From NCBI GenBank assembly GCA_050273025.1, contig CP158635.1:3844001-3908000 (forward strand): DNA of 64,000 bases. The letters are read 5' to 3'. The notes beneath the pieces are model-generated. The model saw only the letters and a program-made list of their open reading frames with translations. It ran no database searches and was not told the origin of the DNA. The stretch comes from Cenococcum geophilum. Taxonomy: Eukaryota. The position numbers were made by a program, and so were the translations under genes. Positions 4,901 through 56,653 of this stretch are shown here, piece after piece (within the stretch, counting starts at the first letter, position 1; each line of letters starts with the position of its first letter).

Positions 4901-7900
4901 ATTCCCTAATGGTAATATATTAAAAGATATCTTAATTTATCTCCCTTTAATAGTTAACTAAATAGGTCCTGTTTTAAGATTAATAATGCCTCCTCTATAG
5001 GCTATTAGATCTCCTAAAATCGTTACTAATAGGTAAGGGTGCTCCTTTTTCCTATATAGTAAACCTATTCTTCTAACTACTATTAGCAAGATGTGGTTCC
5101 TTATTGCTCCACTATCTATTAATACCTTAAACTGTTAATCTTGCCACTTAACTCGTAAATTTAGGTATTATCCTTAAATTCCCTTAAGGGTCTAAGGCTC
5201 TACTACTGGTTTCCTCTAGTTCTATAGGCCTCCACTTTTCCTAACTATTAGCTGCTTAATTCTATGTATACTTAGTCTAACTTAGGCCAATACTTAGTTT
5301 GCTTTTTATCCTTAATATACTATAGACATATATTCTTTAGGTATTCCTACTACTATTATTTATTTAGGCATTCTTCCGTAAGGAATCTTTTTAGCTAAAG
5401 TATTAAGTCTCCTAACTCCTAAACTTCTACTAGATGCTAACTATATATATATTTAGCATTTCTATATCTCTATTTTTTTACTAACCAATATATTCTTATA
5501 GGATATTTTTAGTGCTTATCCTTAGGTGCTTTATATATGTTATATATATTATCTATATATATAATCTATGCTAATATATAATATGCTTAGTGTTTTAGGT
5601 TAACTCTTAGCTTATCTTTATCCTTAAGTTTAAACCTTTCTCGTGTTAATCTAAACATTACGACTTTATTTATAGGTACTAAGATGCGTCTCTTACTTCT
5701 CTAGTCCTCTAAACGCTCCTCTAGATCTTTTAATATTATAATTAAGGCTCCTTTAATATAATTTATGGCCTTCTCCGTAATTAGGTAGTCTTAGATAACT
5801 TTCTCGTCTAGCTATATATAGAAATCTTCCTATTTGTTATTATGCCTTTACCTATACTACTTTTAGTATAGCTACTAGAGTGTATACGGCTTGTTTATAA
5901 GGAAGTATCTTCTTATTACTATATTATAATAGCCCTTTATGTGTCGTTCCTTAAACCTAGTTAAGATCCCTAGATCCTCTTCTTGTTCCAGTTTAGTAAG
6001 CTACTTAGCTTTTAGTGTGCCTGCCCTAGGCCTATTGGTAATTCTTTATACTGGCGCTCTATCCCTTATACGTCCTAATATGCTAGATCTCTTGTCTAGT
6101 TTCTGTTCTTACTATAAGGTAATTCTTACTCTAAACTCCTCCATGGTTTCTTTCCTGTCGCGTCTTATAAGTAGATCCTTAAAGTCTACTTACTTCTTAA
6201 TCTCGGTATTGACTTTTTAATTTTTAGGCCGAACACTATATTCCCCTAGTAAGTCCTCTAGGTCTATATATCTATCTCCTAGTCTAGTTGCTATTTATGC
6301 CGCAGATTCTCTAATCTATAAAGAAGCTACTTACCTCTTGCTTATAGGTGTCCTTATTTATACTCCAAATTCTTAATCCCTTAAATTCTTTAATCCTAAG
6401 CTCGCTTCTAACTTAAGCTTTACTCCTACCTTAGTCTAACTAGGCTTAGGTATTCTTATCTCGTTTTAAGAGTCTTAAATCTTACTTATCTCGTCTTAAG
6501 AGTCTTATACCTATAGGAAACTCTATCCCGAGCTTATTCGTATATCTTTAAACTAAGCTACTACTCTACTCTATTGGTTTTCGTCCGTTATAGGTCCTTA
6601 AGCTTGCCTTATCTTATCTTAAGAATCTTAGTCGTCTCTTATCTCATCTTAAGAATCTTAAGCCTTTAGCCTTTTGCCTTTATTAAGTGCCAAAGTAGTT
6701 TACTATCCTACTTCTCTTACGTCTTACGAAGCGATAGATATTATATCTAGTGGGGTCTTAATCCCTACTAATGTTCCCTATTCTATAGTGGAATTATCCT
6801 CTACCTCTTATATAATATCTTGGAGGTCCGTATACTCCTAGTAAGCTGCTCTTATTGCCTTGTTGTTATAAAATATTTCGCCTTTATTAAATTTATTGTC
6901 CTTAATATCCGATCTATAAACTAGTTTATTGGTTCCTCTATACTCTATAGATTTTGGCTTCTATAGCTAATAGCTTATACTATACTTAGCGTCTTTATAA
7001 ATTTAGTATGCGTTATTATAACAAAACGCGAAACTTCTAATTAAATATTCCTTTGTTCCTTATAGTGCACTATTATCACTCTATATATATATATCTCCTA
7101 CTAGTTAGGTTCCCTTTATTATATAGTAACTCTAACTATCTTTATAATCCCTTATAAAATAACCCTATTTCCCGCAATTTATATAAGCTCTATTTTTAAA
7201 CTATTAACTTTGCTATAGAGTCCGCCTAAACATCTTCTACTACTAAGACCCCTAGTTTAGCCTCTGCTTCTTAGTCCTATAATTACTAGATCCTTAACCT
7301 CTAGGTTTCTATAGTTTCTTACTCTATTTCTTATAGGCTTCTTTAATACTACTTAGGTCTATTAGCTCTACGCCATACCACAGTTTCTAATTTAGCTTTA
7401 GTTGTTGCGTGCTCTACGCCTTATATAACTATAAAACTTTATCTTAACCTCTCTTAGCCTATTCCCTTTAGTAGATCTAATTGTTAATTTTAATTACTTA
7501 ATCTATTAAGTCCTATAGGGTTTCCGCATCTTCCATTAGGATAATTATATCTTAGACTTTAGCCTTAAGTCCTTACTTATACTATGCCATAAGCGCCTTA
7601 TTATTCCACTTAACTTATATTACTAACGTTTGGAACTGCGTCGTATACTTAATTACTAAGGTTCGTTATATAATGTCTTGGAGTTTTCTTTCCGCTATAG
7701 TTACCGCCTCTAGGTCTCCAAACATTTATATAAGTCGCTCTATAAATCCGTTCTAGCTTAAGAACATAAACCGTACCTCTTAGTTTATAGTTATTATTCT
7801 ATTTGCCTAGATTTTTATAAGGTAAGATTTAAACTATTTAAGTGCCCTTTCTATTAAGAACAATCCTGCATACGCTATTTAGTCTATAGGTATTACCAGC

Positions 7901-8163
7901 TTAACTCCCTCTTGCGCCACTTTAAAGTATATTTACGTAAGGAATCCTTTAAGCTTTAATCTTTCTCCTAAGTATCTCTTAATTAATAGTAACTTAACCT
8001 TTACTGCGCCTATTCTATTAATCCTATTTTCCAATATTATATTATTTTCTATTAATTAGTTAACTATCTCTTGTAACTATCTAACCGTTATAGGTTGCTA
8101 TAAGTTAGTATTTGCTATACTAGTGTTACCTAACCTTAAAGTAGTTGCCGCCGTCGATGGCAT
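1880..8163 (-). pseudogene. gag-pol of G1 with a long gag extension
   Basis: ATG at 8163. Zinc-knuckle relic C-I-N-C-G-K-Q-G-H about 7145-7190; protease LIDSGA about 5110-5130; RT YLDD-like about 4150; RNase H about 3400-3750; integrase about 2400-3100; chromodomain about 1900-2000. Many RIP stops. Confidence 0.88.
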
Positions 8164-8232
8164 TATGGTGGCTGCTTTTAGTAGTATGTTGTTTAACTTT
8201 CTATCCTTAGTACCGTAACTAGATAGTAATTA

Positions 8233-8655
8233 TATAACGGAACCTTGTAGCAAGTACTATAATAGGCTCGTTAATAGGCTAGGTGTGTAGGTAACGTAAG
8301 GTAAAGTTAATAAGAAATAATAACTAGTAGAGTAGTTGCCTAATATATTAACTCTAATTATATTCTAAGAATTACTATAAGGAAGGAACTATCTAGGTAG
8401 GGACTAAGGGTCCTTAAATACACAACCGTACTCCTATAAAATCCTCCTTGTACGTAATATACGTATACTCTATCTACTCTATTACGGATTATGTAGATCC
8501 TATAGATTATATAGATTACGTTATATAATCTTAGTTACTATTCCTTATTATATGGCTCTACCGGCTCCATTCTAGACCGTGCCTAAATTAACCAACTAGC
8601 TTCTTCCGACTCTTCCCTAAGTAGTTATAATATTGTACTTAAAGCGTCCGTAACA
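8233..8655 (-). repeat. 5' LTR of G1 (423 bp)
   Basis: Direct repeat of 697-1120. Confidence 0.93.
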
Positions 8656-11104
8656 TAAGAGGTTGAAATACCTACTTTCTATAGTATAATAGCTGCCGCG
8701 AATCCTAACGCTAAGAGCTATATTTAGAAGAACTATTAATTAATTCGCGTCTATATAATGGCCGACTATAAAGCCTACTAACTAGCCGTATATAATAAAC
8801 TTATAAACACCCGCTTAAAGCTTTACTTTTTATTTAATAGCTAGACTATATATAGTAGTAAGTACTTACTTACTAGCATCTATATTTTTTATCTTAATTA
8901 TAAGGGCAGAGTTATTAACTACTTAATCGCTCTACTAGAGCAACTCGGTCGCTATACTAGAATTAACTACGCTGTAGTAATTAGCGATGTTTTAGCTTAT
9001 TTTAAAGTTACTAAAGAAAGCCTAAGCGATTTTATTACTAATAATACTAAAAATAATAATACCTGCTTAGATTATCTAGCTACTGTCTTTAATTTTAGAA
9101 AGGACAATCGGTATATTTAATGCGCGGCTTATATACTTAATCTCGTTACTTAGTTAGTTATATTTAGAAAAGATAAAGACGCGTATAAAAACAATTAAGA
9201 GAACATACCGGTAAGTTAGTAAGTTAATATTATCTTCTTACTTACTTACTAACTTCTACTATATAGGACAAAAAATGTTTTCTTAAAGAATAGCGAAAAA
9301 GGCCCCCTTAGCGTCCTTATTAATATCCTTAATTCCATTAATATACCGCAGCTTTATTAACTATTTAAATCCTACTAAAAGGCTAAGTAAAAGGCCTTAC
9401 CGATCCCTAATTTTAAAATACTAGAAGTAGTAAAGCCAGTTAAGACTAGGTGGAATAGTTATTATAATACCTTTCTATAAGCCGTTGTCCTCCACGATCT
9501 AATTAACTTAATTATATAATATATAATTAATAAATATAAAAAGGAAGCAGCTCCTTTACACGCCAAATAAAAAAAGGTCCCTCTACTACCGCCTATTATA
9601 GTAGCCGGCGCCTTAAACGATTATAACTAGGGTATTATTAATAACTATATTAAGATCCTATTACCAATTTAAGACGCTATAAAGACACTTAAAGCTAAAG
9701 GCAGGTCAGGCCTATATAGAGCAATTTAGGAGGTTATTCCTACACTTAATTAGCTACTTAAGCTTTTTAAAGAAAAGAAGGATCGCGTAGTTAATATAAC
9801 TCTAGATAACTACCCAGATTAAGACGCAATTAAGAATTACTATATAATTAACCTTAATTATAGCTAGCTAAAGCTACAGATGTATTTTAAAAAGCTTAAT
9901 AATACACCCATCTACTATATAGCTGTTCTACTACATCCTTAATATAAGCTCTTCTGCTAAAATATATAGGCAGATCACCTAGAGTAGTTAATTAAAGGTA
10001 ACGCGTCCTTTAAGAAGCTTTAGCTTTAATATATAGAGCAACTAAGTCCTTCCGTAAATACTCTATTAGCTTATCTACCGTTAAGACATACGCACGCGTT
10101 ATTAGCTAGAGACAATTATATTTATACTAACACTAACTACGTAGCTTAAAGCTCTATTAACGCGTTAGATAAATACAAAGCTTAGAAAACTCTACCGCTA
10201 CTACTAGATAATTACCTACTAGCAAACAACCCTATACTTTATTAATGGTAGGAATAAATAACCCAGCTAAAGCTTATATAAATAGCTCTTAATATATTAA
10301 CTATACTAGCTATAAGCAATAACTATAAACGGGCATTTAGTAAAGCTAGTAATCTACTAAAGTTATATTACTTAAAGCTTCGCCCTAATATTGTGGGAGG
10401 GTACGACCTCTCTAAGATAGGAAAGTCACAGTGCCGTCTGTCTGTCTGTCGATCAGTCGGTCGGCTAGTCAGTCATAATTAGTTAGTAAGAAAGAAAAGA
10501 GTGTATTTCCGGTAACTAGTAGGGTCGTGCTATCTATTAGAGGGAAGAAGGAAGGAAGCCGAAGGCTGTATAAATATAGGAAAATGCCAAGATAGTAGGC
10601 GACGTCCAATCTACACCACCACAATATCACTACTGCCTTATAGTATAATCGCAGCTATTTAAGAATAGGCTTTAAAAAATCTAGTAGATAAGGTAGTAAG
10701 TTTACTATAATTAGTATAACTAGTAGCTAACCGTTAAAGTCACTAGTAGGATCTTCCTCCCTACTAAAGCCTTCCTACTACAGCCTTTCTCACCACTATG
10801 CCAAGCCTTATAATAAACACCCTTAGCTACACAAGCTTCCTTATTACGTTATCTCTATATAATCTTATATTACAATAACTACAAATTAGGGCTATAGAGG
10901 AGCTTTTTAGCCAAATTAGTGGCTTAGGCTTAATTTTATATATTACTCTAAAATTTCTATATAAAATTAAATAAGCCTTTAAGTAAGCTAAGTAAGCTAA
11001 CTGTTTAACCTATTAAGCCAAGTAAGCCAGCTTTAGGTGTGAAAAGTTTTAAGCTAATAAGCTAAGGCTTTCTAGCTTAGCTTGCTTACTTAATAGTAAG
11101 TCTA
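8656..11104 (+). mobile_element. hAT DNA transposon H1, left end missing
   Basis: Transposase relic: CAAYILNLV (CxxH) about 9121, intron about 9211-9266, VKTRWNS about 9440, hATC dimerisation domain about 10280-10690. AAGC-rich subterminal repeats end in ..AGTAAGTCTA at 11104, directly before ankyrin sequence. Confidence 0.85.
10392..10623. mobile_element. Solo LTR (232 bp) inserted in the H1 transposase
   Basis: TGTGG...CCACA termini, 4-bp TSD ATAT; the hATC reading resumes after it. Confidence 0.8.
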
Positions 11105-22185: not shown

Positions 22186-23091
22186 TTAAGTTATTATAAG
22201 ATTTTAAGGGAGAATAGTGGCTATAAATAAAAGATATAAATAAATAATTTAGTCCTTAAAGCCGACTACCCTTCTAAAAAAGAGTAGGAAGGATTTAAAT
22301 ATAAGGGGATCTTGTAAATAGGGGGCTATAAGAACACGATTGTAAAATAAAATAGATTAGTAAGAGAGACGAATCCTTAAGGAGGTAAGGCCTCTAGGAT
22401 TGTAGAGACTATATACTACGGGTATGTACCTCTAGCACGTAACCAGCGACTATTTAAGGGGCGTCTAGGGGTTGTCCTAAGGGCAACCTAAGGTGTTTGC
22501 AATAATATCCCTTACAAGAGCTGTTTTAGTTAATTAAGTACTACCAACTAAACTTAGCCTGGAGTTAACTTAACCTTAATTCTATACTTACTCTTAAGAT
22601 AAGATTGGAAATTATTACTAGCTAAAGCACTATACGGTAGATCCGTACAGTATTTGCAGTAAAAAATGCGGTTTTTACCCTAGAATTCTAGCTCTGAGCC
22701 AGCCTAGGGTAGACAAGCGTGCTCCTATATTTTAATAGCTAAGCGCTTTCTAGTTATTTTCGACTTCGTTTTAATTAATTCCTAAGTTAATAAAGGCGTA
22801 AGAAAAGATAAATCTGCCTTAGAAGCCATTTATTGTACGAATTTATAGATAATAGAAAAATTTTGCGGGTTATTAGTAATAGCGTTAATTAATATTAATC
22901 TTATTAATACTTATTGATAACAATATTGATTAGTAAGATTGATAATAAAATTATTAACAACTACGCTGGTCTATATCTACTTACCTGTCTACATCTGCCT
23001 ACCCATTAGTATCTCCCTATTTATGCCTACCTGTCTATACTACCTTGATTTAATCGATCGATTAAATCGTTTATAGTGTTCGCTAGCTAGT

Positions 23092-23482
23092 CGTTGTCGT
23101 CTAGTTCTGGCGACGGTTGTCTGGCTCTAGCGACGGTCGTCTAGTTCTAGTAACGGTCCTCTAGTTTTGGCGACGGTCGTCTGGTTCTAGCGATGGTCGT
23201 CTATCTTTAGTAATAGTCGTCTAGCTCTGGCGACGGTCGTCTGGCTTTAGCGACAGTCGTTTAGTTCTAGCGACGGTCGTCTAGTTCTAGTAATAGTTGT
23301 TTAGTTCTAGCGACGATCGTCTAGTTCTAGCGATGGTCGTCTAATTTTGGCGACGGTTGTCTAGCTCTAGCGACGGTCGTCTGTCTCTGGCGACAGTTAT
23401 TTAGCGACGGCGACGGTCGTCTAGTAACGGCGACGGTTGTCTGGTTCTAGCGATAGTTATCTAGTTCTAGTAACGGTCCTCT
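23092..23482 (+). repeat. 20-bp minisatellite (GACGGTCGTCTAGCTCTGGC)n, about 19 units, in element A
   Basis: Period 20 is directly visible; no spacers. Confidence 0.92.
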
Positions 23483-23714
23483 GCTAGCTGCCGTTCTAGT
23501 GCCTCCCTAGGTAGGGAGGATATAAGGAAAGAAGGAAGGGTAAAAAATAAGGCGGCTATATAGGTAGAGATACGTATAGAGGCTATTAGGAATATAGCGG
23601 GGACCTAATGTAGAGCTTTATATAGAGCCTTATACAGAGCCTTATATAAAGCCTTTAAGTAATAAAACTATATAAGATTATATAAGATTGTATAATTAGT
23701 ATATAACTTTACCT

Positions 23715-25045: not shown

Positions 25046-25487
25046 AAGGCTGTAGTTAGGCTACTAGTTAAGCGGAGCGATATTAAGGCCGACTTAAAGG
25101 ATTATAAGGGTCGAACGCCACTGTTATTGGCGGTAGAAAAAAGGCATAAGGCTATAATTAAGCTACTAGTTAAGCGGAGTGGTGTTAAGGCTGACTTAAA
25201 GAATATATAAAGTTAAACGTCACTATTATAGGCGGCAAGGAATAGGCACGAGGCTATAATTAAGCTGCTACTTGCTGAAGACGTTAATATAGACTCTAAG
25301 AATAAAGATAGTTGGATACCGATATTATAGGCGGCAGAGAATGGGCATAGGGAGATAGTTAAGCTGCTACTTACCGAAGGAGTTAATACGGACCCTAAGG
25401 ATAAATATAGTTGGATACCGCTATTATAGGCGGCAGAGAATAGGCATAAGGAGATAGTTATACTCTGCTTATGAAAGGGGCTGATAC
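25046..25487 (+). pseudogene. Ankyrin-repeat host gene fragment 2 (about 4 repeats)
   Basis: KAVVRLLVKRSDIKADLKDYKGRTPLLLAVEKRHKAIIKLL..; two further WIP(I/L)L*AAEN(G/R)H.EIV repeats; RIP stops. Confidence 0.9.
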
Positions 25488-28400
25488 TGTTAGTTATATA
25501 ACGTAACTCACCAATAACGACTACTCGAGTAGATTATAGTAATATTAGTTAATATATTTCTTATTAATTAAAATAAGAAAGGGCGAGGAGCTTAAGACTT
25601 CTTATTACGCTAGTGCCGCCGCAATATATAATAACCGCTTACCTTATTCCCAATACTAGCAACTCTTCTTTTATAGTTGCTATATATATATAAATACTGC
25701 TTAACTAGTATACTAAATACTAATCCTCTTTACTTACTATTGCTATTATAATATAAGTCTTATTATTCTAAAATTTGCCTCTTAATATATAGTGCTTTTC
25801 TTACTTAAAAGTTAGAGTTAGATATTATATTAGGGCCGCTAAGGCGCTAGTTATAAGTAAGCTAATAGTAATTTTCTATTTTAGGAATGGAAAATCCTAA
25901 TTAGCTAGTTAGAGTTAAGGTTTATAGAATATTATACTCCTACTCCCTTTTAACTTAACCTTTAACTTATATATATAGAGTATTTATATTAATAAATGTT
26001 TCTAAAGCCTTATTTAGGTTTACCTTCGTTATTATATTTACTAGGTTATCTTAACTATTAATTTATTAAAATTTAAAGAGTTTTTGCCGTTTATAGGATT
26101 ATTAAAGTGCTATAATATTAATTGTAAGGCGCTTCTTCTTTATAGTACTAAGCTTAACTAAACACTTATAGAGGGAGTATAAGTTAGTATATATAATTAT
26201 AGGGATAACAGGAAGTTTAAGTTAATCTATAATTATTTTTAGGGTAGTTCTAATTGTAATTACTATATTAACTCCGCTAACTATTCTATATATCTCTAAT
26301 ATTAAAACGCTTTAAGTAATATACTTATTATAGTACTGTAACGCGTAACCTGGACAGGGAGCCTAGTTAAGGGTTCGGCTAAGGACTTAGCATTATAACG
26401 CGTATATATTACGCCTTTACCTCCTATATATACCTCTCCTCTTCTCCTTAGCTTAGTATCTTTATAATATAGCATTCTATAAGCTTCGGTTTAGAGGCAT
26501 TTATACAAGCCGTAATATTATACTAAGCTTACCCTATATTGCCTAGGAAGGCCTTAATAATATCCTACCCTAAAAGAAACTTTATCTGTAACGACGCGTT
26601 AATACGCTATACTTAGACACTAAAACAACTCTATATTGCCTGGGAAGGCCTAGATAATATCCTACTTTATAAGCTAAATAGGACTAGACCTATACCCTTA
26701 GAATTAAAACCAAAGTGTATAATACTAACAAACCTTAGGAAGCTAATAATGGCACCTAAAGCTAGCTTATTTAAGAGAGCTGCCTCTACCTAAGAGGAAC
26801 CTGAGATCTAATTAGGATTAGAAATTAAAGATAATAATAACGTTATAAACGTACGCGAGTAGATTCGCGCCTTTATAGCTAACTAGGAAGCTAATTATCT
26901 AAAGGCAAGAAATATATAAGAGACTCTATAAGAGATCTTAGAAAGCCTTATAGCCCTATAAAATAGCCTAGCTTCCCCTTCTTAAAGCCTTAGCTAACTT
27001 ATTTACTCTACTAAGTATAATATACTAGGGAGTACGGATATAATAACGAAGTAATTAAAGTCCGTTAAGCTCCCTAACTCCCTACTATTATCTAATAGGA
27101 TAAACCCTACCTTTAAGAATTAGAGGATTTAAGTATAAGGAAAGCTCTACGTTAACTATAACTATTTCCTTTTTAAAGAAGTCAAAATACTCTACCTTTT
27201 TGGTTGAACTACTGGGGACGCTTAACGGCACCTTTAAGCCAAGTTTAAGGACAATTCCCCTATCTAATTTATATCTATTAACGAGATAATATAGTACCTA
27301 GCTGCTATTTATATTAACCCAAATAAAGTACGGGATGCCTAGTATAACTATAATCGCCTAATAATAAAGCTAAACCAACTCTTTGCCAGATTTTAAACTT
27401 AATTCCTATACCTTATAGGAGAAGGCTAAGTCCCCCTTAAAAATTACCGATTGGACCTATATAATAAACTAACGATTAGGCTGTAAGAAAAGATTATAGT
27501 AACCTTAAACAACCTACCAAACTATAAAAGACTTACGGCTTATTACCTATTATTAGATATAGAACTAAAGTAAATTAACGCCTACCCTAATTAGTAGAAG
27601 CGACCCTAAAACCCGTTAACTACACCTATAGGAGCTAGAGTAGGAAGATAAGTTATAGCGGTCCCTGCTCTAAAAGTAGTTACTACTATATATCTATAAG
27701 CCTCGCCTAACCCGCTACGTATTACGCCCTTAACTAGCAATCGCCGTAATACCCTAATCGACCCTACTATGGTTATATATTACAACTGCGATAAGGATAG
27801 TTACTTTACCTTATCTTACCTAGAGCTAAAGGATATAGGCGATATTAAGGAGATAAAGGAAGGAGAGACATCTAACAAGTTGGGAAAAAAAGAACCCTAG
27901 GGAAAGACTTCCCCCCTAGGGTACCCTATTAATCTTAAAGAGATTAATTTAAGTTAGTTAATAGGTAGAAAACACTTTACGGTTCTATATATAGTATTTT
28001 AAAATAGATATAGTGTTAATATAACTGCCCTTATTAATACTAAAGTAAATAGTTTTACCTTTATAAATACTGCTTATTTAAATAACGTTGCTAAGTTTCT
28101 AAATGTAAAAGCTACTAGGCTAAAGAAGCCTGTTTAAGTAAGAGGATATAATGGTTAGGCTAGTAAGCTGGTTACCTATATCCTAAAGTTATATATCGCT
28201 CTTAACGGACGACGCCAGTATAGTATCCCCTTTTGCATCCTAGACCTAGGGTCCTATAATATAATCCTTAGCTAAAAATAGATGTCCTATTTTAATATTT
28301 GGCTAAATATATAATAAAGATAATTTGTCTGGCTAGAGAGTAGACTAAAATTACCTTCCTTTATTAGGGAAATCTAAACTAACTATAAGACACTAGCCGC

Positions 28401-31400: not shown

Positions 31401-31597
31401 GTTAATAGAATAGCAGGTAAATAAACACCGCTAGGAACCTAACTTTGCCCCTAGTAATAGGGTCTAGGTTATAATAAAGAATTAAAGGACTAAGCGGCCT
31501 AGTCGTAAGCTAGACTATTAAATAGTAGGACCGTATAAGGTCCTAAAGAAGGTAGGCAACTTATATAAGGTAAAGCTCCCAAATTTAATTAGAGTTT

Positions 31598-34500
31598 TAT
31601 TAGGACGCCAAGGTCCTTAGGGTATATAGTAATGTAATAATAGTAATGGGATGCAAAGAGTATCTAGTTCTTAATGAAGTAGAACTATAGAATTGAATTC
31701 TGCTGTTCTCTAATATGGGGCGACTACGTTTTATAGGCGCCTCGCCTGCGCCTCGCCTGCGCCAAGCTAGTTGCGGCTAGTACGTCTCTATAGCCTAATA
31801 ATTGCCCCCCCCTTCTTAAGCGGCTGTCCTTAGCCAACGCTATTGTACAATAGGAGCGCTATTATTACCCTTCGCTAAATAAAAAAATGTTTAACAAAAT
31901 TTATGTAAATTAAATAATAGGATAATAGAATAATAGGATAATAAGACACTAGGACCATATAGAGATCTATAAAGGTAGAAGTTCCTACCTAGGTAGGATA
32001 TCAGATTTCCCTTCCAATTCTATTTCAATTTATTTAGCCCACGACTTGCCTTCTTTACAATTTCTAATTAACTATAAATTGCAAGCGTTAAGCTGCCGGT
32101 CCGCCTGCTAGTAACCCTTTTATAAGTATTCTTTATACTAGCTTATAGCTATTACTACCCCTACTAGGCGCCGTTAAAGCTCCTACGCTACTTATAAGCC
32201 GCTCCCCTAGCCTTACTAGAACTAATCTGCCTCCGTTATATTAAGCGTATAGCTGCTACTAGGCGGGCTACCTATAGCAAGCAGGCTAACCGCAATTATG
32301 GGTACTACTAATAACTGAATAAGTTATGCTAAGCAGTAAGTTTAAGTATATTAGTTTAGGTTCTAATAGCTAATAGACTAGGTCCCTAAGGCCTTTTATA
32401 GCCGCCTAAATAAGCTGCTTACCCTTATTAATAGGGCTAAACGCCGGCGGGTTACTAGCGGAGACACGGCTAACCTTAACGCTCGTATTGCTGCCGCCTA
32501 GAAGTCCTTTATAAAGGATATTAAGGCCTTAGTACGCACTAGCGCTAAGCACGGTTTCCGCTAGCGCCTAAAGGGCGAAGACTTTTCTTTACTCTAAGTG
32601 CAGGAATTATAGACTATCTATTATACTCTTAAAGGAATTCTTAATATAATGCGCGCTTTAGTACGTGTTATAGCGCAGGTGTTTTACCATTATAGCGTAT
32701 ACTAATAGTACCTATAAGCTAATATGCCTCCCATTATAAGAGATAAGGAGGAGGGAGAGGAGGAGGATAAGAAGGGAGAGGAGGAGGAGAATAAGGAAGA
32801 AGGGGAGGAAAGGGAGGATTTAATAGAGCTGTAGAGTATCTATATTTCTATTAGCATACTGCTATTACTTTACTATTATTCTGTCATCGCCCCGCTAGTA
32901 GGGCGTAATCTTAGTTATAATTAAAAGTTTTTTATTCTCCCACCTACTTTCTTTTCCGTTTGCTCTTTAGGGTAAAGTAACTATTATACGTCTCCTTTGC
33001 GTCCTTATTAATGTCCTCTACTAGGACCTATTTATTATATTCTTTTAGCTAGCCTTTTTACTTAACTAGGTACTATAGGGTTTGGTTATATCCCTTTCTC
33101 CTATATACTTCTTTTACCTTATATTGGTCCTCTTAGTCCGCTTAATTGTCTAGCTTAATAGGCCCTAGTAAAGGGTCTCTAGTAGTGCCCTTATATTATT
33201 TATATAGCTCTAGTAAGCTAATATAGAATACTAGGTAGATATAGTTGGTATACTTACCTTCTAACTAGTTTAGCTATACTAAAAGGTCCAATAAAGCGTG
33301 CTATAAGTTTCTTACTTAGCCTTTTTAGTTTAAGGTTCTTAGTTAATAGCAAGACTAGATCCCCTACTTTATATATCTATAATTAGTAATAACAATTATA
33401 GTATTTCGCCTACGCCTTAGCGGCGTGCTCCTAGCGTTTCGCCAGCGCTTCGCGTTTAAAGGATATTCTTTTAATCCTCTTAAAGGCGGCTAGAATAGAA
33501 CTATTATCATCTACCTAAACCTTATATTCTAGATATAGGTAAAACCTATAGCAGGTATAGAACGGGCTTATACCTATTATACTATATTTAGCATTATTAT
33601 AGGCGAATTTAGCTAGCAATAAAAGGCCTGCCTAGTTGCTTTACTTTTTATTACAGAATACACAGAGGTAGTACTCTAGGGTTTAGTTCTGGCGTTTTAT
33701 TTACCCGTCCGTTTATAGGTAAAAGGCCGTACTTAGCCTATATTTTATCTTCGTAGTAAAGTATAGTTCTAACTAGAACTTACTAGTGAAAATACTGCCG
33801 TAATTAGATATAATCCCCCTAGGGGCTCCAAAACGGCGTACTACTTTATTAAGAAAGAGATCCGCGAGTTTGGTTATAGTAATAGTTTTTACTATAGGTA
33901 GATATAAGGCTATTTTAGTATAGCGGTTAACTATTATATATATTGCGTTATATACCTTATTACCTTGTTTATTAGGTAGTAGGCCTATAATAAAGTCTAT
34001 TATAATCTCTTACCACAGCTAGTTTGGGCAAGGTAGCGCTTAAAGCTCGCCATAAGGGCGATATTAAGGCGCATGTATATACTGGCATAGATTATAGGTA
34101 GAGATATAGTTTACAACGTCCGCAGTTATACTAGGCTAGTAGTACTTACGCAAGAGTAGATCTAGGGTTTTTTTCTTACCAAAGTGGCCAGCTAGGGCAT
34201 TATTATAGTAGATCTATAGGAGCTCTATATAAACTACTAGGTCCAGGGGTATATATAACCTCCTATAGTAATAAAGTAGTCTAGCGGAATTAAACTGCCA
34301 CACTAGCTTTAAGTAGGCGCGTTAACGGCGTCTCGTAGTATCTACGCTGTTACTGCGCCTTTATAGTATAAAGTTATCTTTAGTTTAGAGTCCTTTAATA
34401 AGCTTAATAACGGTTTCCGTACTAGACTTATAAGCACTCTCTTAAGTACTAGCTTCTCTAACTTAGGTCCTTATTATACGCTGCTTAACGGCATATATAT

Positions 34501-37500
34501 AGGTTGCCTAATTAAATTATAATACTATATAGCCTAGGCGTACCGCTGTTAGGTTGCTAGCTTATAGCTATAGAAATAATACCTTTATAGAAGGCTTGCT
34601 TTCTTATACATCTAATAGGACTTTTACTTTAGGTTGGTGGCCCTATATTCCCAAAGTCCTTTAGAGCAGTGGTAGCATAGTGTCTTCTTTTAGCGGACCC
34701 CCTACGCCTAGGGGTTACCTTAACAGCGCGTCTATAGGGTTTATTTTTCCCGCCCTATACTTAATTATAAAGTTATAGGCAGCTAATGCTATAGCCTATC
34801 TAGCTTACCGTTTATTAAGGGCTTTTACTTTTATAAAACCCTTTAGATTATTATAATCTGTAAGCACTTCTAGGCGGCTTAATAGCCCCTTAATATAGTA
34901 TCTCCAGTGCTTAAAAGCCTCTATAATAGCTAGTAGCTCCTAATTATAGATTTTATAATTACGCTTTACTAGCAAAAGCTTCCTAAACTAGAAGGCTATT
35001 AGATACTAAAGGCCATCTTTAAATAGCTATAATATAATTGCTGCTAGGCCTTATATAGAGGCATTAGTCTCTAACTGGGTTAGTAAGCCTAGCGTATAGT
35101 GTTATAGGAGCGGCGCTGTTATAAAGGCGTCGTAGAGCCGGTATATTGCCTACTTTGCCTCTTCTAACTAACTAAGAGGCCTAGCTTTACGGCCGATCTT
35201 TACTCCCTTAAGAAGATTAGTAATAGGCTTTGCAATAGTAGAGTACTTATAGATAAACCGGCGATAGAAGTTAGTAAACCCTAGAAAGACCTGGACATCC
35301 CTATAGGATTAAAGGCTCTCCTACTTAGTAATAGCTTCTACCCGGCTAGGATTTATCGCTATGCCTTTAGGACTAATAATATATCTTAGGAACTTAACCT
35401 CTTATATACTAAACCTACACTTCTTAAGGTTTATATATAGTTAATATTACTACAACCTACGTAGCACTTCTAGTATATAGCGCTAGTGTTCCTCTAGATT
35501 TTCTAAGAAAATTAGAATATTATTAAGGTAGACTATATAGAAGACGTCTACTAGTCCTAATAAGGCTCGATTAATATAGCCCTAAAAGGTCACTGGTCCG
35601 TTAGTTAACCCAAAAGGCAAAACTAAATACTTAAAGTGGCCATAACGCGTGCGGAACGCCGTCTTTTACTTATCGCCCCGATAGATACGAAGGCGGTAGT
35701 ACACATTTATTAGGTCTAACTTAGTAAAGATCTTAGAACCTACTAAGCGGTCTAAGGTCTTACTAATTAATAGTAGTGCGAGACGATTCTTAATTATTAC
35801 CTTATTAAGGCCTCTATAGTTTATATAAAGCTATAGCTTCCTATCTTTTTTAGGTATAAATAGAATAGGTACCCCTACGGGACTAGTACTTAGTTAGATT
35901 TAGCCTTTAGCTAAGGCGTTGTCTAAGTACTTCCTTTGTACCTCTAGCTCCTTAATTAAGAGGTTATAGAGCGGTTTATATAGGACTTCCTATCCCTCTT
36001 CTAGGTTAATAGCATAGTCGCCCTAATAGTATTGGGGTAGCTTTCCTGCTTCCTTATATAAGAAGATATCGCTAGCTTTTTTTAACTATGGGGGAAGAAC
36101 TAGTAAGCTGTCGTTGTCTTATTTACTAGGTATTAATCTAGTAATTACTAGGGCGAAGACCCTAGATTCCCTTTAGAGAGACTCTATAAAACCCTTAGGG
36201 GTTTATAGCAATAGGGATAAGCTATCTAGCTTCTATCGCTACGCCTTCACCTTATAGTTAATAAGAAGTCGGGCCTTCTTTAACCCTAGTATACCTAAGG
36301 TAACAGGGAAGGATGCGTTAGCTATTTTATAGTAGATAAGGGTTACTTCCCTAATCCTACTCTAGCTGTCCTTTATTTGTAATAGTACCTTATAGGCTTT
36401 ATAGTAATATACCTAAGTTTTATTTAACTAGAAGTAGGTAGGTAATTCTATATTTAGTGTTTTAAAGTTATACTCTATTACAAATCGCTGGTTAATTATA
36501 TTTACTTTAGTACCGATATTAAGTATTACTAAGGTCTCCTTTTAAATCTGCTTAGAAAGGACTTTACCTAAAATAGTAATAGCTTCTTTATAATCTAGTA
36601 GGAACTTATACCCTACGGCTATAAGGAGGTCTAAGGGCGCTTATCTTTTCCTAGTATAGAGGTAGCGTTTACGCTACTTAGTAGTAGTTAATTCTATTAC
36701 AGCTCTTTACATTATCGCCACTAATATTCTAGCTGCCTACATTTTAAGCAATTTCCTTTAGGCTAAGTTAAACCCCCAGCGGTATTACTTTACCCCGCCA
36801 TTAAGTCGCTAGCGGTAGTTTTAGAGTCCGCTTTCCCTAAGTTACCTAATTAGGTAGTCTTTATATTTAAGTTTACGGCGCGCCTATTACTTCTACCCTA
36901 TAGGGCGCTTACGCTCTTCTAGTTTTCCTCTAATAGGGCAGCTAGGGAAACTAGCTAGTCTTAAGTTTAAGGGAATTTTTAATAGTTAGTAATAGTAACT
37001 CGTAGCTCTAGCCGCAGCTTCGCGAATAGATATATTATTAGATACTTTACATTATAAGGAGAATTAATTTATGCTTTTAAGGAGGTTAGGTAAGCAGCAA
37101 ACTCGTTTACTAGTTAATTGGTTCGCTGTATTGTCTTTACGTAGGTTAGGGCTATATAAAGTTCTCAATTAATAAGACTTTTAATCTGGTTAAGTAGGAA
37201 TTCTATAAGCTCCTCCTAGGTAAACTATATGTCTAAATAGTTATCTTTATACTGTAGCTAAAGGGTTTAGTTAGTCCTCTTTATATATTATATAGTAAAC
37301 GCAACTTTAATATCCTTATCTATAAAGCTATTACGCTCTAGGCGGAATGCTAGCTTTAAGCTATTACGGAAGTCTTAGTGCTCTTAAATAAACTTGCCAT
37401 AATATAAAGCAATCTTCTCTATTTTAACGGCCCATTTTAATAGAGCGCCTAATATATTAGTAGCCCTTCACTTAAGACTTAAATATATTAGGCTACCCTC

Positions 37501-38136
37501 CAAGTACTCTAATAGGATTATTTAAGGTTATAAAAATGGGTTAGAAATGGAAGTCGACGTTACCTCGCCGCGTTAACGCCGTCTTAGCACTTTTACCTCT
37601 TCCTTAAGCAAGTATAGTTTTCTTTACTCTAAGAGTTATAGCTTCTCGTTCTCTAGCCGTTATATTTCTTCCTATATATCCCCTTTATCTATAGCTTCCG
37701 GTTCTATCTAGGACGATATAGGTTCGCCTATATTATTCTAGGGCTAATCCCTAGACTTAGTAGTACACATTACGCTAGTACGCCCGCGTCTCGCCATTAG
37801 GTTAATAGGCTACGATATAGTTAATAAATATAGGTCGTCTTCTTAACAGAGGGTTGCCGCTATATAGTCGTGGCCTTCGCAGACCGCTGTATTATTAGGC
37901 CACTACCCCTAAAAAGGAATAAGAATTTAGTACTATTAGGACGCTAAGGTCCTTAGGGCATATAGTAACATAATAACAGTAACGGGATGTAAAGAGTATC
38001 TAGTTCTTAATGAAGTAGAACTATAAAACTGAATTCTACTATTCTCTAATATAGGGCGACTACGTTTTATAGGCGCCTCGCCTACGCCTCGCCTACGCTA
38101 AGCCGGTTGCGGCTAGTGTGTCTCTATAGCCTAATA
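31598..38136 (-). mobile_element. Ty3/Gypsy chromovirus G4 (6539 bp)
   Basis: LTRs 31598-31800 and 37934-38136 (203 bp), TSD AGTTT, PPT complement after 31800. gag ATG 37797, RT about 35300-35900, integrase about 33550-34250, chromodomain about 33000-33150. Confidence 0.95.
32074..32834 (+). pseudogene. Antisense four-exon gene in G4: Cys6 zinc-cluster-like protein with acidic tail (about 200 aa, RIP relic)
   Basis: Exons 32074-32121, 32168-32335, 32382-32660 and about 32718-32834, all phase 0. Motif ICLR(C)IKRIAATRRAT(C)SKQANRN(C)GY(C)QQLNKLC; GAG-rich acidic C-terminus. Confidence 0.8.
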
Positions 38137-38934
38137 AGTTTACCCTATTTTCTTACTAGATAAGTTATAAAAAGCTATAAGTAACCTATTACCCAGGTAG
38201 AAGAACAAGCCTTTCCTACCAATTTAACTTAGTGGTAATAATAAATAGGAAGTTAAGGAAATACTAGTATATAAGCTAGTATAAGGAGTGCTAAAATACC
38301 GTGTTTAATAAAAGGGCTATAACCCTGACCTAACCTAGTACCCTACTTAGAACTTTATAGGCTGCCCCTAGAAGCTTAAAGAGTTTTATAATTAATACCC
38401 TAACTTACCTAAACCCCTAAAGTACCTAGATAAGTAAATAGAATATTAATATAATAAAAATAATAAGTTACCGGAAGAGTATAGAGATAAGAACGCCCTA
38501 AGGCCTAAGGAACGAAGCCTACTATAATATACGGCCACCTAGATTTGCGCGTTATATAAGGCCTTTAGATATCTAGGAACTTTAACCGCCGGTTAAAGTT
38601 CTCTAATTAGCTAGATCTTTGCTAAAAGTTTTAGTAGCTACCCTTTCTACTTTAGCGCTTCTACATGATCTACGGTTGCCTTATATACTTAGTTTAAATA
38701 TACTTACGTCTCCTTTTTTTTTTTTTAGTTTTACTTTATTTTTAATAAAGCCTAAGGGTAGGCTTTCTTTTAAAAGGGGGGGGGGTAATATTACGGCACC
38801 GTAACGCGTAACCTAGACAGGGAGCCTAGTTAGGGGTTTGGCTAAGGACATGGCGTTATAACGCGTATATGTTACGCCTCTACCTCCTATATATACCTCT
38901 CCTCTTCTTCTTAGCTTAGTATCTTCGTAATATA

Positions 38935-53400: not shown

Positions 53401-53534
53401 ATCTATCTATCTATCTGTCTGTCTATCTGTCTATACCTACCCATCTATACCTACCTATCTGTGCCTACCTGTCTATATTACCTTAATTCGATTAATCAAT
53501 CAAATCGTTTATTATGTTCGCTGGCTAGTCGTTT

Positions 53535-53932
53535 AAACGGTTGTCGTGTGGCTCTAGCAGCGGTCGTGTGGCTCTGGCGACGGTCGTCTGGCGATGACGA
53601 CGGTCGTCTGGCTCTGACGGTCATCTAGCGACGGCGACGGTCGTCTAGCTCTGGCGACGGTCATCTGGCTCCGGCGACGGTCGTCTAGCTCTGACGACGG
53701 TCGTCTAGCTCTGACGGTCGTCTAGCTCTGGCGACGGTCATCTAGCGACGGCGACGGTCGTCTAGCTCTGACGACGGTCGTCCAGCTCTGACGACGGTCG
53801 CCTGGCTCTGGCGACGGTCATCTGGCTCGTCTAGCTCTGACGACGGTCGTCTAGCACTAGCGACGGTCGTCTAGCTCCGGCGATGGTCGTCTAGCTCCGG
53901 CGATGGTCGTCTGGCTCCGGCGACGGTCGTCT
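53535..53932 (+). repeat. 20-bp minisatellite in element B
   Basis: GACGGTCGTCTAGCTCTGGC units, with some 17-bp variants. Confidence 0.9.
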
Positions 53933-54096
53933 ACTAGCTATCGTTCTGGTGTCTTCCTAGGTAGGGAGGATATAAAGAAGGGTAAAAAATAAGGTGGCTA
54001 CCTAAGTGTATATAGGGGGTATACTTAGCAGAGGCACGTGTAGAGGCTATTGGGAATATAGCGGGGACCCGATAGTAGTATATCCCGCGTACACAT

Positions 54097-54720
54097 AAAG
54101 GCTTTGTGTAGAGCTTCGTATAGAGCCTCCGTACGCAGAGCCTCTATACGCAGAGCTTTATATAGAGCCTTCTGTAAAGCCTCATGTAGAGCTTTATATA
54201 AGAGCTTCGTGCAGAGCTTTGTGCAGAGCTTCGTGTAGAGCTTCGTATAGAGCTTTATATAGAACTTTATACAGAGCTTTATGCAGAGCTTCGTATAAAA
54301 CTTCGTGCAGAGCTTCGTATAGAGCTTCGTATAAAGCCTTATATAAAACTTCGTGCAGAGCCTTATATAGAACTTCGTGCAGAGCCTTATATAGAACTTC
54401 GTGCAGAGCTTCATATAGAGCTTTGTGTAGAGCCTTATACAAAGCTTTGTGTAGAGCCTTATACAAAGCTTTGTGTAGAGCCTTATATAAAGCCTCTATA
54501 CGCAAAGCTTTGTGTAAAGCCTCGTATAGAGCCTCGTGTAAAGCTTCGTATAGAGCTTCGTATAGAGCTTTATATAGAGCTTTATATAGAGCTTCGTACA
54601 GAGCTTCGTACAGAGCTTTGTATAGAGCCTCTATATATAGAGCTTTATATAGAGCCTTGTATAGAACCTCGTATAAAGCTTCGTATAGAGCTTTATATAG
54701 AGCTTCGTGCAGCGCTTTAT
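54097..54720 (+). repeat. 12-bp tandem repeat (AGAGCTTCGTAT-like), about 50 units, in element B
   Basis: Period 12; source of the spurious YKALHEAL/RASY ORFs. Confidence 0.92.
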
Positions 54721-55058
54721 ACAGTTTTATAGTATTTTTATTACATTTTTATTACATTTTTGTTGCAGCCAAAAATTAGGGTCTGCTTAAGTCGCTTAAG
54801 TCGCAATTTTAAGCAGACCCCAATTTTCGGCTGCAATAACGCGCCTAAAAAAAAATTTCCTGATGTAGGGAGCTTAACGGACTTTAATTACTTTATTATT
54901 ATATCCGTACTCCCTAAGGTATTATATTTAGTAGAGTAAACAGGTTAGCTAGGGCTTTAAAAAGGGGAAGCTAGGCTATTTTATAGGGCTGTAAGGCTTT
55001 CTAGGATCTCTTATAGGGTCTCTTATATATTTCTTACTTTAAGATAATTAGCTTCCTA

Positions 55059-56653
55059 CGTTAGGAAAAAATTTACCAGTATCTAATTTTACTTTTCTGC
55101 CATTTTAGCATTTTCAGCATTTTCTAGCATTTAGCCGCCAAATGCCGCATTTATAATTAAGTATTAGCATTTAGCAGCTAAATATAGCATTTATTACTAA
55201 GTACTAGCATTTAGCCGCTAAATGCCGCATTTATAATTAAGTATTAGCATTTAGCTGCTAAATGCTAGAAAATGCTAAAATGGCAGAAAAGTAAAATTAG
55301 ATGCTAGTAATTTTTTCCTAAAGTTCTATATAAGGCTCTGTATAAAGTTCTACATAAGGCTCTATATAAAGTTCTATATAAGGCTTTACACAAAGCTCTA
55401 TATAAAGCTCTGCACGAAGTTCTATATAAAGCTCTATATAAAGCTCTATACGAAGTTTTATATAAAGCTTTATATAAAGCTCTACACAAAGCTCTATATA
55501 AAGCTCTATATAAAGCTCTTATATAAAGCTCTGTGTAAGGCTCTATATAAGGCTTTATATAAAGCTCTATATACAAAGGCTCTACGTACGGAGGCTCTAT
55601 ACGAAGCTCTATATAAAGCCTTTATATATACGCGGGATATACTACTATTAGGTCCCTGCTATATTCCCAATAGCCTCTATATATACCTCTGCCAAGTATA
55701 CCCCCTATATACACCTAGGTAGCCACCTCATTTTTTACCCTTTTTTATATCCTCCCTACCTAGGAAAACACCAGAACGACAGCTAGTAAACGACCGTCGC
55801 CAAAGCTAAACGACCGTCAGAGCCAGACAACCGTCGTCAGAGTTAGACAACTGTTGTTAGAGTTAGACGACCGTCGTCAGAGTTAGACAACCGTCGTTAG
55901 AGCTAGACGACCGTCGCCGGAGCTAGATGACCGTCGCCAGAGCTAGACGACCGTCGTCATCGCTATATAACCGTCGCTAGAGCCACACAACAACCGTTTA
56001 AACGACCAGCCAGCGAATATAATAAACGATTCGATTAATCGATCGAATTAAGGTAATATAGACAGGTAGGCATAGATAGGTAGGTATAGACGGGTAGGTA
56101 TAAATAGATAGATAGACAGATAGATAGATAGACAGACAGGTAGGCAGGCAGGTAGGTAGGTAGGTAGGTAGGTAGGTAGATAGGTAGGCAGGCAGGCAGG
56201 TAGGTAGGTTAGTAGGTAGGCGGGTAGAGGAGAACCATCGCTATATTATATTAAATTATCTAAAATAATATAATTTATTTTGCACCAACTGCATAGGAAG
56301 AGCAATACTTATTTATTGCTTAAAGTAAGTAAGATATATAGAATATGCGAAAAGGGCATTATATATAGAATACGCGAGAAGGGCATTATGTACAGAATAT
56401 ACGAGGAGGGCATTATATACAGAATGCGCAAAATGCATAATTAGCTGCACTGTATTATTAAATATAGCAGTATACCGCACTATATTGTTAAATACAGCAG
56501 TACGCAGCAGTATACCGCACTATATTATTAAATATAGCAGTATGCCGCACCTTAGTCAATACTATATACTACACGTTATAGTGCGCGGAATGCGCATTTA
56601 GCCGCTAAATGCTGCTAAATGCTGCAAAAATGCTGGTAAAATTTTTCCTGACG
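55059..56653. mobile_element. Non-autonomous TIR element C (2-bp TSD), core inverted relative to B
   Basis: TIR CGTTAGGAAAAAATTTACCAGTAT / ATGCTGGTAAAATTTTTCCTGACG. TSD TA; empty site in G3 about 26884. 12-bp array 55322-55625, 20-bp array 55788-55997, GTAG tract 56060-56228. Confidence 0.9.

Follow-up and report, generated by a model that had tools for sequence, protein, structure and literature searches.

A probable intron-bearing gene antisense to gag-pol, inactivated by RIP, in a Ty3/Gypsy chromovirus family represented in Cenococcum geophilum

The locus described here lies in a window of 64,000 nucleotides from Cenococcum geophilum (assembly GCA_050273025.1, contig CP158635.1, positions 3,844,001 to 3,908,000 of the forward strand), and all coordinates below are those of this window. 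The DNA is AT-rich, with a GC content of about 0.22–0.46 per kilobase, and has the TA-rich look of repeat-induced point mutation (RIP). Differences among copies of the region in raw read runs are nearly all transitions; run X1 gives 79 A>G, 79 T>C, 69 C>T and 56 G>A against about 20 transversions. Within it lies a Ty3/Gypsy element whose gag-pol region occupies the minus strand. In the interval from the pol stop to the 3′ long terminal repeat (LTR), on the opposite strand, is a four-exon gene (32074–32834) encoding a small protein with six regularly spaced cysteines, which we regard as quite likely to be a genuine accessory gene of this chromovirus family.

The two LTRs, whose edges were set by comparing one with the other, are the 3′ LTR at 31598–31818 and the 5′ LTR at 37934–38155, both read on the minus strand and forming a direct repeat of 86–90% identity. 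Homology between the window and other family copies begins at about 31597–31600, at the outer edge of the 3′ LTR; no 5-bp target-site duplication is recognisable at the outer edges of both LTRs. The gag-pol region (32944–37933, minus strand) ends with the pol stop codon at 32946–32944, and its minus-strand frame in the window copy matches the Pfam families RVT_1 (E=1.1e-21), RT_RNaseH (3.2e-18), Integrase_H2C2 (1.7e-9) and SH3_Tf2-1 (5.4e-8). The chromodomain (33141–32947) follows a frameshift after the integrase in this copy. A Pfam search of the window copy itself did not detect it, and Chromo (PF00385) was found at E=4.3e-12 on the homologous stretch of a cleaner copy, L019. Over 32947–33597 (minus strand) the family mode, present in 62 of the 72 aligned copies described below, is 671 nt, and the window has 651 nt, a shortfall of 20 nt that fits a frameshift between the integrase C terminus and the chromodomain. 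Flanked by its LTRs, the element presents reverse transcriptase, RNase H and integrase followed by a chromodomain at the C terminus, the order expected of a Ty3/Gypsy chromovirus. A G-rich purine run at 31805–31817 (minus strand; AAGAAG followed by G8) had been taken in an earlier, sequence-only reading of the window for the polypurine tract. However, a RIP-degraded twin of this run opens the 5′ LTR (at about 38141–38153), and because the run thus stands at the start of both repeats in the LTR–LTR comparison it belongs to the LTR, formally as its first bases; the true polypurine tract of the element is not firmly placed. The pol stop and the LTR are about 1.1 kb apart, and the antisense gene sits inside that stretch.

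The sequence-only reading had proposed a four-exon gene carried by the Gypsy family antisense to gag-pol, and such a gene does lie between the pol stop (32944–32946) and the LTR edge at 31818, with the coordinates and anatomy then given. Traced exactly in the window copy, three introns of 46, 46 and 57 nt join four exons, and every junction is in phase 0. Exon 1 (32074–32121, 16 codons) is basic and rich in Pro and Gly, and begins here with ATA where the ancestral codon is ATG. It is followed by intron 1 (32122–32167, 46 nt), whose donor has been altered by RIP to ATAAGT in the window and whose acceptor is YAG. The six-Cys motif, Cx2Cx11Cx7Cx2Cx6C, is encoded by exon 2 (32168–32335, 56 codons). 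Intron 2 (32336–32381, 46 nt) reads GTAAGT...CTAA[C/T]...TAG and leads into exon 3 (32382–32660, 93 codons), which is predicted to be helical. Intron 3 (32661–32717, 57 nt) is in frame and carries stops, and its acceptor in the window has become AA through RIP. Exon 4 (32718–32834) specifies a Glu/Asp-rich tail and the stop codon TAG at 32832–32834. A spacer of 109 nt (32835–32943) separates the convergent stop codons of the gene and of pol. On the other side, the 5′ flank (31819–32073, plus strand) is a candidate promoter and 5′ untranslated region. It includes, at about 31900–31960, a length-variable minisatellite with an 8-nt unit resembling GATAATAG, and it contains no in-frame upstream ATG in a consensus of the family corrected for RIP (de-RIPed).

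In the window itself the gene is dead and mutated by RIP. Besides the ATA start, the ATAAGT donor and the AA acceptor it carries nine in-frame stops, and two of the six Cys codons are left (32228 and 32327, both TGC), the other four being TAT or TAC. The plus-strand frames of the region match no Pfam family, and blastn and tblastn found no further copy of the gene region within the 64-kb window. From the window sequence alone, the claim of a gene was a guess, indistinguishable from wishful de-RIPing.

The ancestral state was read from natural copies of the family. A protein-seeded scan of Joint Genome Institute (JGI) metagenome contigs returned 595 pattern matches. Of these, tblastn upheld 190, and the 80 best among them served as loci. 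All belong to the same family, being 79–88% identical to the window over 31600–33600. Seventy-one of the 80 span 31850–33000 and were aligned with the window, to give 72 copies; nine with incomplete coverage were dropped. Nine copies start with ATG and 63 with ATA. At the Cys positions 32228, 32237, 32273, 32297, 32306 and 32327, TGC or TGT stands in 42, 20, 23, 24, 36 and 55 of the 72 copies, respectively, and the other state at these positions is TAC or TAT, except for one AGT at the sixth. By comparison, every copy has TAC at 32303, a true Tyr codon, which shows that a genuine TAC does not yield TGC variants. The in-frame stops of the window correspond to CAA, CAG or CGA in many copies, and the terminal stop at 32832 is kept as TAG in 67 and as TAA in three, that is in 70 of the 72.

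Three open reading frames (ORFs) recorded in ENA from other copies (P0002–P0004) have Gln at the position of this stop and a 1-nt indel within intron 3. The possibility raised by their read-through, that the gene's stop is itself a product of RIP, is rejected in view of the TAG or TAA present in 70 copies; the read-through is consistent with ORF callers being able to report only the rare copies with a mutated stop. The indel is consistent with indels being tolerated in intron 3.

The splice signals can be followed in the same way. Donors are GTAAGT or GTACGT in most copies, and branch sites of the CTAAC type and YAG acceptors are present in all three introns. For intron 1 the donor is GTAAG[TC] in 37 of the 72 copies and the commonest branch site GCTAAC; for intron 2 it is GTAAGT in 50 and GTACGT in 17; intron 3 has the donor GTACGT in 42, the branch site TGCTAA in 47 and the acceptor YAG. 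In the de-RIPed consensus (2,052 nt) the pattern GTRNGY...CTAAC...YAG, at a length of 36–80 nt, occurs solely at the three introns, together with a nested variant in intron 2, and the minus strand of the same consensus has no occurrence of the pattern. The consensus and most copies thus display what is expected of fungal spliceosomal introns, namely GT...AG borders, a CTAAC-type branch site, a length of 40–80 nt and the restoration of one frame. Intron 3 is the least secure of the three, since splicing it is needed only to drop stops and not to keep the frame. Its support comes from the splice signals, from its constant length and from the threefold periodicity of indels in exon 4, and there is no argument from frame.

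The ancestral gene that emerges from the copies has an ATG, four exons, 211 codons, three canonical introns and the motif Cx2Cx11Cx7Cx2Cx6C. Each of the outcomes named in advance as counting against a gene (Tyr rather than Cys in the ancestor, an absence of GT–AG introns, a closed frame) is contradicted by the natural copies and by the de-RIPed consensus. The layout foreseen for the product is likewise borne out for the ancestral protein, which runs from a basic, Pro-rich N terminus through the six-Cys domain and some 90 residues, predicted to be helical, to the Glu/Asp tail. All 72 copies examined, including that of the window, have been inactivated by RIP. Among them, L047 has no stop and keeps all splice sites, but starts with ATA. 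Read depth over the gene in run X1 (2001–8967) is similar to that over pol (3393–9443), so that most copies carry the gene, which is a regular part of the family and not a rare insertion.

Both the lengths and the polymorphisms of the aligned copies indicate that the exons have been constrained. Exons 1–3 (495 nt) show no indel in any of the 72 copies, measuring 48, 168 and 279 nt throughout. Intron 1 is likewise 46 nt in all 72, intron 2 is 46 nt in 56 copies and 1 nt off this mode, at 47 nt, in 16, and intron 3 is 57 nt in 71 and off the mode in one. Exon 4 is variable in length and departs from its mode of 141 nt by multiples of three in 70 of the 72 copies. Elsewhere the modal length is missed by ten copies in the proximal 5′ flank, by 31 in the 3′ flank (the spacer between the stop codons), by 36 in the LTR and by ten in a pol segment; over 31833–32073, 53 copies are off the mode and 17 distinct lengths are found.

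As RIP cannot make transversions, selection was assessed from transversion polymorphisms common to at least two copies. In the exons these fall at 3, 1 and 10 sites of codon positions 1, 2 and 3, respectively (175 sites each; binomial P=0.004), and in pol at 4, 4 and 10 (216 sites each). Nine of the 14 in the exons are synonymous and five non-synonymous, against 22% synonymous expected (P=8.7e-4). This count scores codon 32089–32091, where haplotype inspection separates Gln, His and Ser alleles by two sites, as non-synonymous. The pol control gives nine synonymous of 18 against 18% expected (P=0.002), whereas the control frames over exons 2 and 3 (the mirror minus-strand frame, +1 and +2) give none of ten. 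Per site, such transversions are as frequent in the exons (14 in 525) as in pol (18 in 648) and far rarer than in the two flanks, which together have 23 in 213 sites (Fisher P=1.8e-5), made up of 15 in 104 for the proximal 5′ flank at 31970–32073 and eight in 109 for the spacer. Purifying selection, the absence of which was the remaining outcome named as adverse, acted on the gene during the diversification of the family, and its signal is no weaker there than at the 3′ end of pol. Such selection points to a benefit for the element.

These counts also decide against the view that there is no gene, and that frame, introns and cysteines come from over-correction during de-RIPing of a GC-rich spacer, or that the coding strand is in truth the minus strand. 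The de-RIPed consensus has 58% GC, and each of its six frames contains ORFs, 50–159 codons long, among them one of 107 codons that mirrors exon 3 on the opposite strand; the openness of its reading frames was accordingly discarded as evidence of coding, all six being open in places. However, the codon counts were taken from natural copies and not from the consensus, the synonymous excess appears in the proposed frame while the mirror, +1 and +2 frames have 0 of 10, intron signals are restricted to the plus strand, and an independent protein record, described next, matches the spliced product. We consider the absence of a gene extremely improbable.

A HMMER profile of exon 2, built from eight natural copies, was searched against 1.84 billion representative proteins with a cut-off of E≤0.001 and retrieved seven matches. 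Two belong to the same family, and P0015 and P0017 are relatives altered by RIP. P0014 (KAI9870925.1) is a hypothetical protein of 230 residues from a metagenome-assembled genome (MAG) of the lichen fungus Pleopsidium flavum and is free of RIP. The joined consensus product shares 35% identity with it over 156 residues (pairwise E=1e-29), in an alignment that continues unbroken across the exon 2/exon 3 junction and reaches the last residues of exon 3, the latter being homologous to P0014 residues 139–229. In copy L047, P0014 matches as two tblastn pieces flanking intron 2. P0014 keeps the Cys spacing Cx2Cx11Cx7Cx2Cx6C, and its end coincides with the end of exon 3, so that the acidic exon may be lineage-specific. 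In a second homologue free of RIP, the P0016 cluster, the motif is retained, its first loop having 13 residues. Word-based protein searches returned only ORF fragments of same-family copies altered by RIP (four and seven matches), and P0014 used as a query retrieved only itself; the protein collections searched thus hold ORF fragments of such copies and one full-length homologue from another fungus. On this sequence similarity the gene product forms part of a small family of proteins that has no name and includes a relative in a lichen fungus.

Splicing receives indirect support from the P0014 alignment over the exon 2/exon 3 junction and from a further record. P0012, from an ENA contig of 703 nt, is an ORF of 61 residues that fuses exon-1-like and exon-2-like sequence without an intron, three codons short of the canonical junction. 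Three origins can be envisaged for it: a metatranscriptome may have contained the spliced transcript, the genome may have lost 55 nt, or an antisense mRNA may have been retro-copied.

In the lichen-fungus MAG the homologue carries the annotation of an ordinary hypothetical protein, which would suit a different account, in which an ancestor of the family captured a host gene, introns included, in reverse orientation and has carried it since as a passenger of no service to the element. The transduction of cellular sequence by LTR retrotransposons has been discussed as one origin of such regions (PMC11963269). However, neutral cargo should not yield nine synonymous changes among 14 shared transversions where 22% are expected, nor 495 nt of exons without an indel across 72 copies while the flanks vary. 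Read depth over the gene also equals that of pol. We therefore find the passenger account distinctly unlikely. A host origin as such would be compatible with later use by the element.

The nature of the six-Cys domain was examined next to that of the fungal Zn2Cys6 cluster, with which the sequence-only reading had associated it. Zn2Cys6 domains (PF00172) follow the spacing CX2CX6CX5-12CX2CX6-8C, fold as two short helices around two zinc ions and recognise CGG triplets in DNA. A true member of this family would make the product a miniature Gal4-like activator, with a DNA-binding domain, dimerisation helices and an acidic activation tail. The last three spacings of the motif (7, 2 and 6) lie within the family ranges, basic residues follow the first Cys pair, and the arrangement, with helices and an acidic tail after the Cys domain, resembles Gal4. 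The first loop, however, has 11 residues (13 in P0016) instead of six, and PF00172 gave no match at E≤10 on the copies L047, L046, L019 and L008 or on P0014 and P0016, although the equally small chromodomain was detected in the same copies (the Chromo match in L019 serving as positive control). Among PDB sequences the domain profile had no match at E≤10, hence no Gal4-type chain, and the best match of P0014 was a LIM protein at a non-significant E=0.19. The AlphaFold2 model of P0014 has a mean predicted local distance difference test (pLDDT) score of 61; it renders the Cys domain as a low-confidence β-hairpin and not as two short helices, and the part matching exon 3 (about 90 residues) as three helices with a pLDDT of 65–85. 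Exon 2 modelled alone gave one long helix (pLDDT 61), which is meaningless. Kinship with Zn2Cys6 thus finds neither a profile match nor a fitting first loop, and membership of that family is very unlikely.

In an atlas of protein clusters the nearest neighbours of the product are unnamed Ascomycota proteins (0.92 and 0.87). The nearest named clusters, DUF3716, DUF8257 and DUF8414, stand at 0.76–0.79, below the lead threshold of 0.9, and no Zn_clus occurs among them; the DUF3716 profile (PF12511) gave no match at E≤10. The six-Cys domain is best taken as an unassigned module, probably zinc-binding.

Taken together, the position of the gene between pol and 3′ LTR, its opposite orientation (pol domains on the minus strand, synonymous excess and introns on the plus strand only), the presence in most copies and a conservation like that of pol, to be read with the caveat that the loci were chosen by means of the gene, are those of an antisense accessory ORF, and we think it quite likely that the family carries one. 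The following points weigh against this reading or its extensions. The 80 loci were picked by a tblastn match to exon 3, which biases that exon towards well-kept copies, a bias tempered by the fact that exons 1 and 2 contribute 13 of the 14 informative sites; these 14 sites are also all that the selection test has to draw on. The introns do not significantly exceed the exons in variability (6 of 149 versus 14 of 525 sites; P=0.41), and the open frames of the consensus mentioned above belong here as well. None of the 72 copies is intact, and any present-day activity is hypothetical. The comparison with P0014 and P0016 is one of protein sequences. At the level of the protein, no Pfam family of any kind matched the best natural copies or P0014 and P0016 at E≤10, the PDB sequences gave no match to the domain profile as reported, Foldseek found no PDB match to the P0014 model at E≤0.001, and a wider fold search returned generic helical hairpins only (Z≤8.1, under the noise level for helical models). 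The Cys domain of the model reaches a pLDDT of only 50–60, and with so low a value zinc binding, DNA binding and nuclear location can only be inferred. Finally, none of the data sets listed as containing the sequence is recorded as RNA, and one RNA run (X21, about 12% of it read) placed 17 reads on the 1.6-kb stretch, none of them at least 99% alike and none with a splice joint, which allows no verdict on expression.

The persistence of the introns accords with the orientation of the gene. The element is copied through its sense RNA, from which antisense introns cannot be spliced, and on this accepted principle they survive in every copy. Of what the sequence-only reading had said on this point, the retention of the plus-strand introns was observed in all copies, and the antisense explanation is taken over as principle.

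What the protein may do is suggested by its layout. A basic region, a putative metal-binding module, helices and an acidic tail resemble a small nuclear regulator that binds DNA or chromatin. The basic N terminus, which in P0014 is also basic and has an AT-hook-like GRP stretch, the acidic tail, the predicted helical C-terminal part and the precedents in the literature discussed below point the same way. The LTR edge and the ATG are separated by about 255 nt of variable sequence. The antisense mRNA might start within this stretch or in the 3′ LTR, and its product could act in trans on the transcription or silencing of the family, following the reasoning put forward for antisense genes in plant Gypsy elements and in HTLV. 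As a whole, this picture of a small nuclear, zinc-binding, DNA- or chromatin-binding regulator made from such a promoter is put forward tentatively, somewhat short of an even chance. A bolder version, which by analogy would see in the product a trans-acting factor of the retrotransposon (an activator of its own LTR or a counter to silencing), made from a spliced antisense mRNA as a fungal analogue of HBZ, and in its six-Cys domain an undescribed zinc-binding family spread over transposons of Ascomycota and in occasional cases, the Pleopsidium gene among them, domesticated by the host, is speculative and on balance unlikely.

Several other repeats were observed in the window. A 146-nt direct repeat pair (26326–26471 and 38789–38934, 90% alike) brackets the Gypsy element, which may be nested inside an older LTR element. 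At 25046–25480, four to five tandem units of 99–102 nt, 63–75% alike, with a period of 33 codons and a Leu/Ala-rich translation, look like ankyrin repeats degraded by RIP. GC-richer islands (0.44–0.46) consist of 20-nt and 12-nt tandem arrays at 23027–23522, 53524–53979, 54169–54724, 55285–55548 and 55775–56014. The arrays near 23 kb and 53 kb are related to each other at a spacing of about 30.1–30.4 kb (families D2, D7 and D18), which suggests two copies of another repeat-bearing element. Further LTR-like pairs occur at 1–300/6658–6957, 781–1080/8316–8615, 13600/22304 and 57048/62585.

To our knowledge, antisense accessory genes of LTR retrotransposons are known from plants and from one fungal element, Boty, and a function has been established in none. 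No description of an intron-bearing antisense gene with a cysteine motif in a fungal Gypsy element was found in the open-access full texts searched. One of the closest parallels by description is brtn, an antisense gene between pol and the 3′ LTR of Boty-like Gypsy elements in Botrytis cinerea and Sclerotinia (PMC7264820, PMC8365987, PMC4227169), first described by Zhao et al. (2011, Virology 417:248, as cited in PMC8365987, PMC7264820, PMC4227169 and PMC5987419); its product, BRTN, exists as a database protein (PMC5987419). Like the present gene, brtn is an extra gene in a fungal chromodomain Gypsy element, placed between pol and the 3′ LTR and antisense to gag-pol, the likeness being one of description only (PMC7264820). 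As far as the data show, the host class differs. None of six of the seven exon 2 profile matches (P0018 was left out) bears the name BRTN, and a source is named for one alone, Pleopsidium for P0014.

Among plant Ty3/Gypsy elements, Grande, RIRE2 and Retand carry additional antisense ORFs between pol and the 3′ LTR (PMC7264820, PMC11963269). In Retand, 97% of clusters have an antisense TRP28 ORF with predicted DNA binding, for which a regulatory role has been proposed by analogy with human T-cell leukaemia virus (HTLV) (PMC11963269). These ORFs resemble the present gene in position, orientation, presence in most copies and a conservation like that of the element proteins, and also in a suspected DNA-binding regulatory role and in tandem repeats within the same region (PMC7264820, PMC11963269). 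They differ in that the elements belong to non-chromovirus lineages with much longer pol–3′ LTR regions (2.9–6.6 kb in Retand) and, with respect to the three introns found here, the word intron never occurs in the Retand paper (PMC11963269). The plant domain TRP28 (PF04195) is also a different one, with no match in the present gene at E≤10.

HBZ of HTLV is encoded by a minus-strand gene at the 3′ end of the provirus and is a small basic nuclear-type protein of the basic leucine zipper (bZIP) class, with a helical region and without richness in Cys. The present gene is similar in being an opposite-strand gene at the 3′ end of a reverse-transcribing element with a small basic product and a predicted helical region; there is no sequence relation, however, and a bZIP protein stands against a Cys-rich one. 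Transcription from the 3′ LTR belongs to the HTLV model, from which the sequence-only reading drew its promoter, and is only a hypothesis for the present gene. Antisense genes exist in HTLV and in the simian virus STLV (PMC11963269).

Among fungal proteins, the Zn2Cys6 transcription factors share with the product six Cys, basic residues, downstream helices and an acidic tail, a likeness that fails at the profile and at the spacing of the first loop. Proteins of the DUF3716 group (PF12511) include two that REP9, a class II transposon found in Zymoseptoria tritici, carries (PMC8232023). They too are small, carried by a fungal transposon and of unknown function, and a DUF3716-bearing cluster appears in the atlas at 0.76 and 0.78, a lead only. 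To these systems can now be added a fungal family of very high copy number, in whose antisense gene three introns are retained, purifying selection is measurable and the Cys motif is common to a distant ascomycete protein. The comparison of copies allowed an ancestral gene to be recovered from DNA heavily mutated by RIP, where annotation would otherwise miss such genes, and the case provides a defined protein family on which questions of zinc and DNA binding, LTR activity and genome defence can be asked.

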